This document shows, one piece after another, positions 48,001 to 54,000 of a DNA stretch of 64,000 bases. Location: IMG/VR virus record IMGVR_UViG_646311923_000012; one strand, 5' to 3'. The position numbers were made by a program. Origin of the DNA: a virus (taxonomy: Duplodnaviria > Heunggongvirae > Uroviricota > Caudoviricetes). How positions within the stretch are numbered: the stretch's first letter is position 1; every line of letters begins with the position of its first letter.

Positions 48001-51000
48001 ATTCCTGGTAATGTCTGTCACATGCAGTTTATCCGCCGCAAATGCACTGACCGGTGACTGCGTCAGCGTGAACGGTGTGCCATCCTGACCATCAATAACC
48101 GGCGTCACCTGAAGGCTGTTATTCCCGGCAAAGCGGAAAGCCAGCGTATGCCATTCGTTATCAAATGCGCCAAAGGTTCCCAGTTTCAGGTTGTTTGTCG
48201 CCACTTTCGCATTGTGGTACATCACATTCAGGTCTTTTGCATCTGTCTGGATGTAGAACGCTGCCAGCAGGTTATTCCCCCCGTCTCCGGTCAGGGCAAC
48301 GCCCTGTGGCAGTGAAGAGACCGGCCAGTAAAACGCCATAACATACTGGTTCGCAGCCAGCGCTCCCGAAACCTTAAAGCGGCAGCGAATCTGCCCCCCT
48401 TTCTGTAACAGAGCCGCACCGTTGCCCGCGGCGTACTCCAGCACCCAGCTGCTTTTACCGGCCTCCTTGGTCAGCTTCACTGCCTTACCTCCGGTTCCCT
48501 CCGCATCGCTGACCACTTCTGCCCTGCCGCCACTGGCTGACCATCCCTGTACTTTCAGGCTTCCCTCTGACTCGCTGGCAAGGTAAGAGAGCAGTGTTGT
48601 GACGCCTGTGGCTTCTGCACCGGAAGGCGATGAAGGGCGCACCTCTGATACTGTCGATGATGCCCCCGCGTTTAGCGCCACTCTTCCCGCATGGCGCAAA
48701 ATCGCCGTTGCCAGACGGTCGGAAATAATCCCACGGCGTGCCCAGGCGCTGAAATGGCTCGCCCTGTCCTGTGACGTCCAGGTGGCTGAGCTGTCACGCC
48801 ATTTCGAACCGTAATATCCGATACCCGGAATGTCCGGGTCTTCTTCCGGTTTGTTCGTCGGCACATTCACCCCGTTCTCATCGGTCATGAACGGTACGAA
48901 ATGGATATTCTTTTCCGTTTTGTTTTTATAGCTGCCGTACACCGTCTGGTACGTGGATTCGTTCTTCTGCTTCCAGAAATACGTCGTATCTCCACATATC
49001 CAGGGAACACCGCCAGCAGAGCCACCGACGCACTGACCTGCCATATCCGCCAGGTCTGCACGGAATTTATCAACCAGCGCACCAAACTGTGCTGCGTGAT
49101 TTGCCGGCGTACCGCCAAAATCAAATTCCCCCTGCATCCACACCACGGCAAACAGCACATTTTTCGGATTCTTCTTCAGTGCTGCTTTTGTTCGACCGAT
49201 AAGGTCCTTATACAGCGGCTTGTCCACACCCCAGCGGGTTGAATTCTCCGAGGCACCACTCGCGTCACTGTATGTGCCATCGGCTCCGGTGGTGAACGCT
49301 GAACCACCACGACAGCACGGAACCAGCAGAATGCCCGCATTCGCCGGTATAAACGGCAGCAATTTTTTGGCGATATGCAGCCCTTGCCCCACGGTTCCGT
49401 ACTGCCCCTTTGACAGGTCCGCTTTCGGATGGTTAAGGCGGCTCATGTCCTGCACATCATGCAGACAATGGTCCGCCGGAATGATGTCGTTATATTTACA
49501 GGCGACACCGCCCGGTGTCACCGTACTGCGACGCGCCAGCTGCTTAATGCGCGGGTCCGGACGGTCATATGTCTCCGGCAGCGGAAGGCCTTCACCATAT
49601 GCCATGCTGTTTGACTGCCCCGCCAGAACCACAACAAAGTAATACTCCGGGTCTCTGGTGGCGCTGATTACTGTGCCTTCTCCATCCGACGGCTTCACCA
49701 ACACAGGTGTGGTGACATCACCTTCCGCCGCAATGGCCTGCATCAGAGTATAAGGCGTGATGGCCACCGGGCTGCCAAATGGCTGCCACCCCTCCTTCAG
49801 TTTTTGTGTCAGCTTTTCCGCAAGATCTGACGGCGACGCCGCCCTGACAACATCATAATGTTTAATCGACATCGAATTTCTCCCGTGTACAGGAACAGAG
49901 TTAAAAAGCCGGAACCGGAATCAAATTACAGGATGGCCATCTGCCAGTGGCTGGTCGTAAAAAAAGGCCACGCCATGCGCAGCCGGAAATAAAGGGATAA
50001 CGATGATAGTTTGAGAAAAACAGAAACAACACTTTTGTGGCAAAGCATGGTGCCGGGTGCCTCCCGGTGAATTCAGTATCAGCACCTGAATCCGCGATTA
50101 TCCCATATACCTGGTTGCTGATCGCCCCTCCGCACAGGGGGATTCACCATGCAGAAGTGTTTTTAATAAACAGCAAACAAAAAAATCAAGCATTATGCAG
50201 GCTGTTTCTTTTTATCACCGGCCACAGCAATACCACAATGCCGCAGACCAGCACCCCATCCGCCAGCACCGACATGATTCTGCTGGTGAAATCCACCATC
50301 ACCACCAGAAACAGCAGGAGTGCAGCCACAGCCAGGCGCAGTTTTACCGTCACAGGTGATTCTCCAGACGAAGACCCAGAACACCGGCAATCTCTTCCAG
50401 CACCTTGCGCTCTTCCGGCTCAATTTCGCCGTCTGCCTCCGCAATGGCCACCGCCACATCCAGCACATCTTCCGCTTCACGCGTATCGTGTTTCACATCC
50501 TCAATCTCGCGTAACGCGGCACGACGACCAATTTTAAAATTGGTATCCAGCTGACCGATAATAGTTGCGCTAATCGCATTAATTTCCGAGGTAAACGCAG
50601 ACAACGCAGGCTGATTACGTAAGACCTGTTCGATCTTCGCTTTCTCGGATGCCTCGCATTCACCATCTGCATAGGCCACCAGGTATGCAGCGTTAATCAC
50701 CGCCTGTGCCAGATCGCGTTTCTCAAACTTTTTAATTTCCGCTGCCGCTCTGCGGGTTTTCTTTTTGAAGATTCCAAACATCGTGACGTTCCTTTGGGTG
50801 GGTGAGCCAACGCCCGGGAGCGATCTGCCCACAGAGAAAGTCACACTGACCACTCCGTAAGCTCACCCCCGAAAGGCTCTGTGGTTGATATGCGCCGGGC
50901 GTGGCGCAGATACAAAAAAGGCCCGCCGAAGCGAGCCTGGAAAATAAGTGTGGCGCGTTGTAGTGGAGTCGAACCACTGACCGATTGCTTAGAAGGCAAT

Positions 51001-54000
51001 TGCTCTGTCCGACTGAGCTAACAACGCATGATGCTGATAATGGACCGCCATCGGGGACTTGAACCCCGCGCAGCCAGCTTCGAAGGCTGGCGCTCTGTCC
51101 CGATGAGCTAATGGCGGTATGTGATATGGTGGCCCTTGCTGGATTTGAACCAGCGACCTGGCGATTATGAGTCGCTCGCTCTCACCACTGAGCTAAAGGG
51201 CCGAGCCAAAAAATAATAATCAGATGAAAATCAATAATCAAGCCCTTGCCTGGATACATATCTGTCTGGCGGGAAGCCATAATAGCGGTGAAATACAGAA
51301 ATAAAGTAGGACCTGCTTGAATAACCGCATTTTTCTGCTATAGCCTGTCCATATCCATGCCGGGAACATAACATATTTACAGCAACACGCATCCGCTCTT
51401 CCAGCAACAAGCGACTGAACATGCCCCCTTCATTTTTCAGTTTTGTCTTTAACAAACTCTCACTCATATGCAACTGTAGAGCAATCGCACCAAGCGTCCA
51501 GCTTGCTGATATATCTGTCTGAATTATCGCCCTGACTTTGGCACTTATGCTGGATAAACATCCACTTAAAAACAATGACATCCGTTCATCTGTTTCAAAC
51601 AGAGACAGGCAGGCCATCATAAGAAACATATCCGTGGCCTCTCCGGAAAATCCCTGGCTGGTAATTAAAGCCGCAGCCAACGCAGGATTGTTGGGTTCCA
51701 GCAACAGGTAAAGCGGAATGTCAGTCAGACGAGTCCTCGTCAGCTTATGCTGACTTTCCAGATATTGACTTACGACGGATTCGCTTATATCGACAATTTT
51801 AACTTTGCCATAATGCATAAGGAAAAGCTCCCTGATGCATTTGGTGGCCAGAACGACTGAGCCTGGCTTAAGTGACAACGTATCCTTTTCAAGAAAAATA
51901 TTAATTGGGGAGCAAACCATGATAACTGAACAGACAACAGCCATTATAATTTTACTTTCATTAGCAATTGGTTAGCTCAATTATAGCCCCAAAAGGTAAA
52001 TTATCATCAACACATAAGCAAAGGACTGACAGGTGTCGCCCCCCCACCAGCCGCCCATTCACCACAAATAAAAAGCCTTCAGGACTGAAGGCGTCTGTAA
52101 CAACCGCACTGATAGTCTGCCAGACCCGCCATAACAAGCTGGGTCAGTATTAACTGGCAGCGTTCGCGTGAAAGGTAAGTATTCTGCGCAACCTCCCCGA
52201 CTGTCGCCGGTTCGGTAACGCTTAATTCATTAAACACCACTCTGGCGGTTTCGGTCATATCCTGCTGTTTCAGCATGTCTTTTTCCCTTTTTCGGTTAAC
52301 GTGACACACCAATAACTCTTGTCGAAAAAGCCAGCAAGCTGAAAGAACGGTATTAATAACCACCAGCGAATTTATTGCGCTGCTGTATATTACGGACACA
52401 AAAAAACCACCTTCCGGTGGCTTCCTTGTGCGAAAAAACTTGCATTTCGCCTCGCGATACAGCTTTGCGAAGCTTACAGGAATTCAAGCTGTTTCTGCGT
52501 AAAAAAGCAAGCTTTTTTTATCGAAATGAATCGTGCATAGGTACATAAAGCATGTGTTCAGCCACGGCTAACCAACCTGCAATACGTTTCTCACATGTGC
52601 TGAAACACCATTCCGGGTGAGTACGATTTAAACATTCTGCCATTTTTCTCTTACTCATTCCCCGTCCTTCGTACCTTTGCCGGAGAATATTGATTAGCCC
52701 GGGATATTCCCCAAGCACCTCACTGATAACGCGATCAATAATCAACGCCTCTGTGTCTGTACAATGTGACAACCAGCTCTTCTGCTTCCCTCTGGTCATA
52801 TCCCGAAAAAATGCCTCAAGTTCCGGTTTTTCCAGCCCGGATTTCTTCATGCTGCGTAAAACCTCATTAACTGCTGTTTTCGTCAGCTTTTTCGAAACCA
52901 GTAACCGGTTAAACATATTTCCGGATTTACCCCCACCGATATACGACCACCGCCCCCACATCCGTAATTTCCCCTGGATCCAGACTGCTTCCAGCGTGTT
53001 CAGGCGTAAATGTTCGCCGCTTTTGCCTGTAATTTCCGGATATATCATATTTACGCTCACTCACTCTCAATTTTGTAAATCTTCACACCCAGCCGTCCAC
53101 CAGATACTGGCTGACCGCGCACAATATTGATTTCATCAAACTGCTCGTCATCAATGAGCACTTCCGCATGCGTCAGCGCATCCAGCGGTGCTTTCAGAAT
53201 GTTGTCCAGGTCACGGCGGCGCTTATCCGGTGGCTCTGCAATCACCTTTATCGCCAGCCTTCCGGACAGGCTTAATTTCAGCCGCTGCTGGCGAACAATA
53301 AGCGCCACAGCCCGGCGATAACGCTTTCCCTCCTCCGAGATAAAATATGTGCTGCCACGGCGTCGCCAGTAAGTGTTCACCGTCGGCGGGTAAGGTAAAA
53401 CCAAATCTATGAGCATCAGTCACCTCTTTTACCCAAGCACGCCAGTTGCAAAGGCGTGATCAAGAAAACGAAAAATTAAATCAACCTGAGAACCATGCTT
53501 TTCTTCGAACGCCAGCGGATCCGCATGAAGCTCGTTGTGATGCTCCCGACACAGCGGTAGCGTGAAAATATCGTGAGATTTTGTCCCCATTCCCCCCTGA
53601 CCATGACCAATCAGGTGATGCGGATCGTCAGCAGGCTTACCACAACACGCACACGGCTGTGTCTTCACCCAGTGCGTGTATTTCTCGTTAACCCAGCGGC
53701 GACGTTTAGGTCGTTTCATGAAAGATTCCGGAGACTCAGGATCAACGGCAATGCTGACCACCGTCTTTTCCTGTGGCGGTTTTTGCTGGTGAGCGTGAGG
53801 CAGCGGCGCAAGATTTTTTGTGCGCTGCTTCAGTATGCTGGTGGCGGTCTGCTCTCCCGGTACGATGTCGCTTTCACGGTACATTGAGCGGATTTTTTCC
53901 GCACGCAACCCCAGCGAACGACGTAATACCGCTTCCGGTAGCGCGTCCGCCACCTGATTGCGGACCGCCCACCAGGATAATTCAGCCAGAGATAATTCCC

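Follow-up and report, generated by a model that had tools for sequence, protein, structure and literature searches.

Which cargo, if not the Shiga toxin (Stx) genes, occupies the region between the late antiterminator and the lysis genes of an Stx-phage-like prophage, and what could that cargo do for the phage? The question is raised by a 64,000-nucleotide (nt) stretch of DNA from a caudoviricete virus (IMG/VR record IMGVR_UViG_646311923_000012), hereafter the window, in which a sequence-only reading had noticed, at 49873–51230, a TerB-like gene coupled to the gene of a 55-amino-acid (aa) membrane protein. All coordinates are positions in the window, and all cassette-related genes lie on its minus strand. 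Over 8.5 kb the window is 100% identical to Escherichia coli O103:H2 str. 12009 (NC_013353.1, 2363570–2372070), where RefSeq annotates both genes (ECO103_RS12260 and ECO103_RS12255); the smaller open reading frame (ORF), described earlier as absent from the ORF track, is the latter, a DUF3927 family protein. The observation is real, but the protein pair is largely ordinary, a known accessory pair in a known moron slot: GenBank phage records name the two proteins TciA and TciB, after phage P1. New, as far as the tools can tell, is a covarying leader RNA ahead of tciA, which joins a known kind of element, the cis-regulatory leaders that sequester the Shine–Dalgarno sequence (SD).

The slot is the known PR' moron site, delimited by the tRNA terminator and the small RNA (sRNA) STnc100, with stx2AB, nothing or tciAB as cargo in between. 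Its edges were defined by aligning the junctions with those of Stx2a_1447, PhiR49_2, Evi and JLK-2012 and by Rfam scans of related loci. The window and Stx2a_1447 are common through the last tRNA and its terminator, diverge directly after it and become similar again at STnc100. The sRNA lies 75 nt after stx2B in the Stx2 phage and directly after the tRNA terminator in the empty-slot phage PhiR49_2; it follows tciB in the window, Evi, JLK-2012 and an O157 prophage, and the post-tRNA terminator is kept in Stx2, empty-slot and tciAB loci. The window slot contains neither stxA nor stxB. The pair therefore sits where stxAB would sit, as had been claimed, since the junctions align with both the Stx2a phage and the empty-slot phage, and the survey of related prophages agrees. 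Among 84 close loci, tciA is found 167–177 or 764–779 nt after a tRNA cluster in 66, and wherever the downstream flank is present a nanS-p or holin gene follows, with a single exception. Prophages of Pantoea, Klebsiella and Salmonella show the same succession of Q, tciAB and lysis genes, and between them have four different Q families. The site and its sRNAs were described by Tree et al. 2014 (PMC4104026), STnc100 downstream of stx2 has also been reported elsewhere (PMC12370729), and STnc100 copies are transcribed in EDL933, as seen by northern blot (PMC5331693). A convergent anti-sRNA of the AgvB/AsxR type, present in one O157 copy, was not detected in the window copy by the Rfam scan. As a separate observation, a −10-like CATAAT overlaps the last tciB codons, about 7 nt before the start of the STnc100 model. 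The cassette thus shares with the stx2AB moron the same insertion point, from the argO-type tRNA terminator to STnc100/nanS-p, and, probably, the same dependence on Q read-through (PMC4104026, PMC12370729), but the cargo is unrelated and the Stx2a_1447 locus has no leader of the family described below.

Profile comparisons show TciA to be, at the level of sequence, a full-length TerB homologue with both acidic motifs, in line with the earlier assignment of the larger ORF. Pfam TerB (PF05099) matches residues 26–138 at 60.2 bits (cut-off 24.4; expect value (E) 2.9e-16), PHROG 632 matches end to end (1.7e-69), and the solved Klebsiella TerB, 2JXU, aligns over query residues 14–137 and chain residues 20–144 (E 4.4e-8). 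The two D-G-x5-E motifs, D39/G40/E46 and D117/G118/E124, are presumed to form the metal site of the TerB family; among 23–24 homologues, D39 and G40 are nearly invariant and E46, D117, G118 and E124 invariant. The AlphaFold2 model (predicted local distance difference test (pLDDT) score 87, predicted template-modelling score (pTM) 0.82) is all-helical with eight helices, and contains a basic N-terminal helix, residues 3–20, of low pLDDT. A Foldseek search with this model gives 2H5N as the best match (probability 1.0, TM-score 0.53–0.61, E 0.02) and also retrieves the COG3793 tellurite-resistance protein 2OU3 (TM-score 0.42); none of the matches reaches E ≤ 0.001, and 2JXU falls outside the top 50. 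Compared with TerB of the terZABCDE cluster (2JXU, Klebsiella), TciA has the same domain over its whole length, a similar size and conserved acidic motifs, but it is only ~25% identical, is phage-borne, has the basic N-terminal helix and is accompanied by a 55-aa protein instead of TerC, TerD, TerE or TerZ. DjlA also has a TerB-type domain at the inner membrane, and the NCBIfam DjlA model matches TciA residues 87–138 at 1e-6, far below the cut-off; TciA has neither a J domain nor a transmembrane (TM) segment, anchoring would need a separate TciB, and the likeness is one of analogy, not of membership.

The 55-aa ORF, judged by its conservation, is a real gene. The sequence-only reading had named lack of conservation as what would speak against it; it is conserved instead, with a match to Pfam DUF3927 (PF13064; 62.3 bits, cut-off 25, E 4.3e-17) and to PHROG 1470, 'TciB-like' (4e-30), a tciB dN/dS of 0.10–0.50 where computable, and 56% identity to TciB of the virulent N4-like phage Pollock, whose TciA is only 31% identical to that of the window. 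DUF3927 proteins form 120 clusters at 50% identity among 1.84 billion proteins, and nearly all are stand-alone, of 50–65 aa. The best-conserved part of TciB is its centre, LFLVVxVDFTSRIMSVLADGxLV, and a polar stripe (D21, S24/R25, S28, D32) runs along one helical face. The protein is hydrophobic, and hydropathy suggests two short hydrophobic segments, which makes the proposed two-helix hairpin plausible; AlphaFold2 modelled TciB alone as one continuous straight helix, residues 3–54. Matches of 75 nt to a 'DUF3927 domain-containing protein' in other E. coli genomes were discarded: the single locus inspected is a degraded pseudogene remnant near insertion sequence elements.

Translational coupling of the two ORFs, also described earlier, is found here and elsewhere. 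The tciA stop and the tciB start overlap as GTGA, with a GGAG about 9 nt 5' of the tciB start. A DUF3927 ORF accompanies the TciA homologue in 84 of 90 loci, with a 4-nt stop/start overlap in 83; the genes abut in P1 (TGATG) and are directly adjacent in Pollock (TAAATG), so that overlap or abutment is seen in E. coli, Klebsiella, P1 and Pollock. In Pseudomonas phage AF, TerB is coupled to a different ORF with one TM segment, again by a GTGA overlap. What these loci have in common is a gene for a TerB-fold protein translationally coupled to that of a small membrane protein. A different combination occupies the Q-to-nanS-p slot of phage 434 (stretch 1612–2844), with a 247-aa multi-TM protein without a Pfam family, a DUF3927 protein, a 62-aa membrane protein and no TerB.

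The cassette belongs to a known, named and annotated phage family and is not new. The earlier statement that it could not be assigned to a described cassette does not hold, since the pair is TciA/TciB of P1, is represented in Pfam and PHROGs (632, 1470), carries RefSeq annotation in this genome and is very common. Of 5,426 complete E. coli genomes, 802 contain at least 80% of the pair; where there is any match, the median is four places per genome and the maximum ten, with many copies in enterohaemorrhagic E. coli (EHEC). Outside temperate lambdoid backgrounds, Pollock (Schitoviridae) carries TerB and DUF3927 beside dUTPase and replication genes, and Erwinia and Salmonella jumbo phages carry the pair inside a tRNA cluster, with a TciA 67–76% identical to that of the window and a TRAP/TAXI solute receptor among the neighbours. 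In P1, where the pair sits 3' of C1-controlled ban promoters, a 141-aa TciA (42% identical) is directly followed by a 54-aa DUF3927 TciB (49–53% identical), the stop and start abutting; as in the window, the genes are accessory and flanked by tRNA genes, including a CAT tRNA. P1 differs in having a third ORF, tciC, of 35 aa with one TM segment, for which the window has no room, STnc100 beginning only 4 nt past the stop codon of tciB. It also differs in control, by the C1 repressor rather than, as is probable for the window, by Q, and in having no structured leader; an STnc100-like hairpin is found 5' of tciA instead. This STnc100 core hairpin, CACCGGGAAGCACCCGGCACC, lies upstream of tciA instead of downstream both in P1 (locus stretch ~2440–2470) and in one metagenomic relative.

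The TerB-like gene is not a core phage gene, an outcome the sequence-only reading had considered: tciABC of P1 is non-essential for plaque formation by CRISPR interference (PMC10695390), loss of the tci genes is seen in about half the members of one P1-like plasmid subgroup (PMC9603915), and the slot also holds stx or nothing. A further observation concerns the surroundings of the pair. In four unrelated phage backbones tciAB adjoins tRNA genes: CAT-Arg-Arg in lambdoid phages (Asn-Thr-Gly in JLK-2012), Asn and Thr upstream and Ile-CAT downstream in P1, and Trp and Cys upstream in the Erwinia and Salmonella jumbo phages, with Tyr, Gln, Ile and Met downstream in ChrisDB. From this pattern, tRNA clusters may serve the cassette as landing pads or travel partners.

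Nucleotide similarity between the window and jumbo phage ChrisDB begins ~95 nt 5' of tciA, in a leader with four invariant blocks, in order AGAGCCTTTCGGGGGTG, GGAGTG, CTCC and TGGCTCACCCACCYAAAGG. The leader is kept in E. coli, Klebsiella, Pantoea and Salmonella prophages and in jumbo phages, including a Klebsiella phage with a TciA only 43% identical. Alignments show a conserved and covarying structure in which one helix is predicted to pair with the SD. Helix a/a' (CCACAGAG/CUCUGUGG) is recovered by RNAalifold with compensatory changes, and a structure derived by hand adds helices e/e' (CCUUU/AAAGG, the latter being the SD), f, b/b' (GGGUGAGC/GCUCACCC) and c/c' (GGAGUGGUC/GAUCGCUCC). In a plain MAFFT alignment, 82% of cells are paired, against 39–56% when the partners are slid, and 18 cells change on both sides, a number reached in none of 500 shuffles. 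A covariance model, R1, was built from the nested helices only, leaving out helix a/a'. It finds the leader 5' of tciA in 34 of 47 sources searched, at 31–112 bits (103.4 for the tciA leader of the window), and not in P1, Pollock, the Stx2 (Stx2a_1447) locus or the empty-slot locus. In the model-fitted alignment of 33 distinct sequences, which is biased towards the modelled helices, 91.6% of cells are paired (39–53% with partners slid), 24 of 32 pairs change on both sides (shuffle mean 10.9, with 0 of 500 reaching 24) and the covariation score is 0.286 vs 0.148. The unmodelled helix a/a' is still 95% paired, with four covarying pairs, and the SD helix e/e' is 98.8% paired. Since helix a/a' crosses the other helices, the leader would be pseudoknotted or adopt two alternative states. 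A G run in the 5' arm of helix b (~50866–50870, minus strand), AGAGCCTTTC-G(n)-(T)GAGC, ranges from 4 to 12 G among otherwise near-identical contigs; this may reflect slipped-strand variation that shifts the helix register or a homopolymer assembly error.

No described RNA was found to account for the leader. The best Rfam 15 matches to it are microRNA and sRNA models at 11–22 bits, against cut-offs of 41–90, a 12-kb scan at E ≤ 0.1 returned nothing for the leader, and a literature search for its sequence strings gave unrelated primer matches only. Identity with PasA/PasC is unlikely: those are, by description, 84-nt sRNAs that end in a terminator, which the leader does not have. A coding role as an N-terminal extension of TciA was rejected, as there are indels of lengths not divisible by three, the G run is of variable length and changes within the helices compensate one another. 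An exact-pattern scan of species-representative genomes gave only three matches, two of them probably by chance.

A second copy of the leader, one of just two in the 64 kb, precedes an ant/Bro-N-like gene inside the lysis region. It scores 67.6 bits with R1 (E 2.5e-17). Many compensatory changes separate it from the tciA copy, and its computed minimum free energy (MFE) fold reproduces the e-f-b-c structure exactly, pairing the SD (mean unpaired probability 0.19). Sequence similar to this ant-type leader is present in 306 phage records, mostly of Stx2a and Stx1a phages and also of some Salmonella and Klebsiella phages; in annotated records it lies mostly upstream of ant or Rha-type genes. In other loci the family also occurs 5' of a Bro-N gene and of a 50-aa ORF. 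With RNA thermometers and the expression platforms of riboswitches, the tciA leader shares a conserved helix between CCUUU and the SD AAAGG, 8–10 nt before the ATG, conserved unpaired blocks and a possible pseudoknot or alternative helix; unlike them it precedes unrelated genes (tciA, ant/Bro-N, the 50-aa ORF) and has no Rfam family. For this reason it looks like a moron leader of general use, serving the translation of accessory genes within phage operons, rather than a metabolite sensor.

The stx2 genes have a weak promoter of their own. For tciAB, neither a promoter scan of the stretch between the upstream terminator and the tciA ATG nor a search of these 137 nt for a TANNNT hexamer gave a candidate, and an own promoter was rejected on these results. 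As the cassette is flanked by two intrinsic terminators and no promoter was found in the leader region, tciAB is probably transcribed mainly by read-through of Q-modified RNA polymerase during lytic growth. The earlier proposal that the pair would be made on induction fits this arrangement. A role in the lytic cycle is further suggested by the presence of the pair in Pollock and in the Erwinia and Salmonella jumbo phages, and by its position in P1 below the C1-controlled ban promoters.

The features of the locus are listed in Table 1. In the 5'→3' direction of the minus strand the order is RusA, Q, a 65/106-aa ORF, an AraC-family gene, the tRNA trio, a terminator, tciA, tciB, STnc100, a terminator, the esterase and the lysis region. 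The Q-like antiterminator, the CAU/UCG/UCU tRNA trio, the NanS-p-like esterase and the lysis genes reported by the sequence-only reading were all recovered on this strand. Its layout from Q to the tRNAs is right in its elements but omits the 65/106-aa ORF and the 237-aa AraC-family gene, and its account of the interval lists real features but misses the STnc100 sRNA, the two intrinsic terminators and the structured leader.

Table 1. Features of the tciAB locus and its surroundings (window coordinates)
Feature	Coordinates	Strand	Remarks
Q-type late antiterminator gene	52518–53060	−	RefSeq start 53048, DUF1133 family protein; Pfam DUF1133 1.1e-110, Phage_antitermQ 1.4e-8
Candidate PR'-like promoter and short tR'-like hairpin	52400–52508	−	TTGCTT-17-TTGAAT; hairpin CCACCGGAAGGTGG then T7; just 3' of Q; inferred by reading the sequence
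AraC-family (YdeO/GadX-like) regulator gene, 237 aa	51231–51944	−	Pfam HTH_AraC 2.4e-13; NCBIfam YdeO 4e-31, below cut-off
tRNA trio	50951–51202	−	CAT (ileZ-like) 51202–51127, Arg-TCG 51117–51041, Arg-TCT 51027–50951; ARAGORN and Rfam tRNA
Intrinsic terminator after last tRNA	50919–50938	−	Left edge of cargo slot; scan: 8-bp stem, 6 G-C pairs, T run
Structured tciA leader RNA, ~105 nt	50779–50886	−	Ends in SD AAAGGA and ATG; predicted helices a/a', e/e' (pairs SD), f, b/b', c/c'
tciA, 143-aa TerB-fold protein	50350–50781	−	ATG 50781, TGA 50350; Pfam TerB
tciB, 55-aa DUF3927 membrane protein	50186–50353	−	GTG start 50353; Pfam DUF3927
STnc100-family sRNA	50009–50181	−	Right edge of cargo slot; Rfam RF02076, full-length model, 104.7 bits vs gathering score 47
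Intrinsic terminator 3' of STnc100	49966–49984	−	Scan; minus-strand-specific owing to its two G-U pairs
NanS-p-like SASA esterase gene, 645 aa	47935–49872	−	Pfam DUF1737, SASA, DUF6645
Second leader copy	46226–46341	−	Directly 5' of the ATG (46228) of a 189-aa ant/Bro-N-like gene, 46228–45659, between R and Rz

The automated scan gives a tR'-like hairpin near Q on the plus strand only, and places a terminator at 52092–52075 at the end of the 65/106-aa ORF between Q and the AraC-family gene. The latter is a separate moron between Q and the tRNAs, with a promoter-like site at 52007–51980 (10 of 12 positions matching). Its product is nearest to the YdeO, GadX and HilD models, all under cut-off, and belongs to PHROG 1450; it may resemble the AraC-like acid-resistance and virulence regulators encoded by EHEC prophages, such as PatE. 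The tRNA trio is ~95% identical to ileZ-argN-argO of Stx2 phages, and the esterase is 96.6% identical to its homologue in phage Stx2a_1447. On the 3' side of the esterase follow, in order, DUF1378, DUF826, holin, lysozyme, the ant/Bro-N-like gene and Rz. Just 3' of nanS-p on the opposite strand (47857–47933, plus) there is a weak match to the EHEC sRNA Esr41 (29.5 bits, gathering score 102, E 0.029), which may be a diverged Esr41/Pas-type sRNA or a chance match. The prophage carries further morons, a ParD/ParE-type toxin–antitoxin pair at 54822–55447 (plus), divergent from the late region, and a PerC-family regulator gene at about 44.5 kb, just beyond Rz.

The explanation that we prefer, tentatively and at somewhat short of even confidence, is that the interval is a mobile accessory cassette, leader-tciA-tciB, at the PR' moron site of a lambdoid prophage. 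Q-modified RNA polymerase would read through the flanking terminators, and the cassette would be transcribed mainly during lytic growth. The leader would hold back translation of tciA, and by coupling that of tciB, until its structure is opened. TciB would anchor or partner the cytoplasmic TciA at the inner membrane, so that two polypeptides would together reproduce the tethering of TerB to the membrane known from TerB-TerC and DjlA. The TciA/TciB complex would bind divalent cations and protect or condition the inner membrane of the infected cell; the insults guarded against could be superinfecting phage, pore-forming colicins or premature depolarisation, and tellurite resistance would not be conferred.

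Several points weigh against this explanation. With regard to expression, read-through from the AraC or tRNA promoters may give a low level of the products in the lysogen. With regard to the membrane association, we only infer a physical interaction between TciA and TciB: the positive-inside rule places the polar stripe of TciB on the periplasmic side, away from the cytoplasmic TciA, and AlphaFold2 gives a single long helix rather than a hairpin. TerB+DUF3927 fusion proteins (197 aa and 170 aa) and longer DUF3927 matches were considered as evidence of interaction and rejected as frameshifted or chimeric gene calls. Some TerB homologues are without DUF3927, and DUF3927 in phage 434 accompanies other membrane proteins without TerB, which implies that it can pair with other membrane partners. 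With regard to the leader, the covariation fold of the tciA copy has −34.3 kcal/mol (without a/a') against a computed MFE of −46.7, with the SD only about half paired in the ensemble; moreover, as the same leader family precedes the unrelated ant gene, it is uninformative on the function of TerB. As for that function, the literature searched contained no experimental paper on the function of TciA or TciB, the tci naming in P1 rests on homology only, and, given that P1 tciABC is non-essential, any benefit of the pair would be conditional.

Two alternatives are about equally unlikely. In the first, the prophage would encode a module for defence, abortive infection or superinfection exclusion and express it in the lysogen; TciA would be its sensor in the cytoplasm and TciB its effector in the membrane, comparable to RexA/RexB of lambda. 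The two-component layout of one soluble and one small membrane protein would suit such a module, as would its multiplicity in EHEC genomes. The plasmid ter cluster gives phage-inhibition and colicin-resistance phenotypes, to which the names of the P1 genes refer. PADLOC-DB 2.0, however, gives no significant defence match (PDC-S48 alone for TciA, E 0.0035, 14.5 bits; none for TciB). The moron site is known to accumulate lysogenic-conversion genes (PMC4104026), but expression in the lysogen fits poorly with the lack of a promoter-like −10 element between the upstream terminator and the ATG and with the predicted sequestration of the SD by the leader. The pair is also found in strictly virulent N4-like and jumbo phages, where protection of a lysogen is impossible, although exclusion during infection is possible.

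The second alternative, of similarly low probability, is a metal or ion homeostasis helper for phage replication, in which TciA, by buffering or sensing Mn2+, Ca2+ or Mg2+ at the membrane, would keep the metabolism of the infected cell working, without any role in exclusion. It draws on the conservation of both acidic D-G-x5-E motifs of the TerB family and on ter operons, in which TerB is the partner of TerC, of a cation transporter family; the tciAB cassette, however, encodes no transporter, and TciB is too small to be one alone. Copies in virulent phages lie next to nucleotide-metabolism and replication genes, and a TRAP/TAXI solute receptor is among the jumbo-phage neighbours; against this, P1 can dispense with tciABC in rich medium.

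Slightly less probable still is a modulator of lysis timing, an antiholin or holin-accessory factor that would act on the adjacent S/R/Rz. In E. coli, Pantoea, Klebsiella and Salmonella prophages the pair has a late-operon place just 5' of the lysis genes, but in P1, Pollock and the jumbo phages it stands among tRNA, replication or early genes instead. TciB is likely to be located in the membrane and the second leader copy lies inside the lysis cassette; against this, the neighbouring holins are of different types (Phage_holin_2_1 and Phage_holin_3_1), and the slot can hold stx or nothing with the lysis genes unaffected. The least likely label, a lysogenic-conversion determinant for tellurite resistance, has in its favour the product names in RefSeq, PHROGs and GenBank and is very improbable, as ter-mediated resistance needs terB, terC, terD and terE together, only a TerB homologue and no TerC, TerD, TerE or TerZ is found among the region's ORFs or annotated genes, no promoter was found, the pair occurs in virulent phages and the name was assigned by homology only.

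Beyond the single cassette, it is conceivable, though rather unlikely, that the leader represents an undescribed class of SD-sequestering cis-regulatory RNA, pseudoknotted or two-state, which gates the translation of accessory genes in late or early operons, tciAB in the window and in jumbo phages and ant within the R–Rz lysis cassette of Stx1 and Stx2 phages, and that TciA/TciB is a phage-wide inner-membrane module for the exclusion of competitors or for protection from membrane-targeting host suicide systems. The pair spans EHEC prophages, with up to 10 copies per genome, P1, and virulent N4-like and jumbo phages, the window copy being one of thousands. That it occurs in temperate and virulent phages alike speaks for a function in lytic growth and against the name 'tellurite resistance' propagated in databases. 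The leader, in turn, is a concrete candidate regulatory element ahead of at least two unrelated accessory genes in the late operon of Stx phages, and it could show how morons stay translationally quiet, or are timed, inside a very strong transcript.

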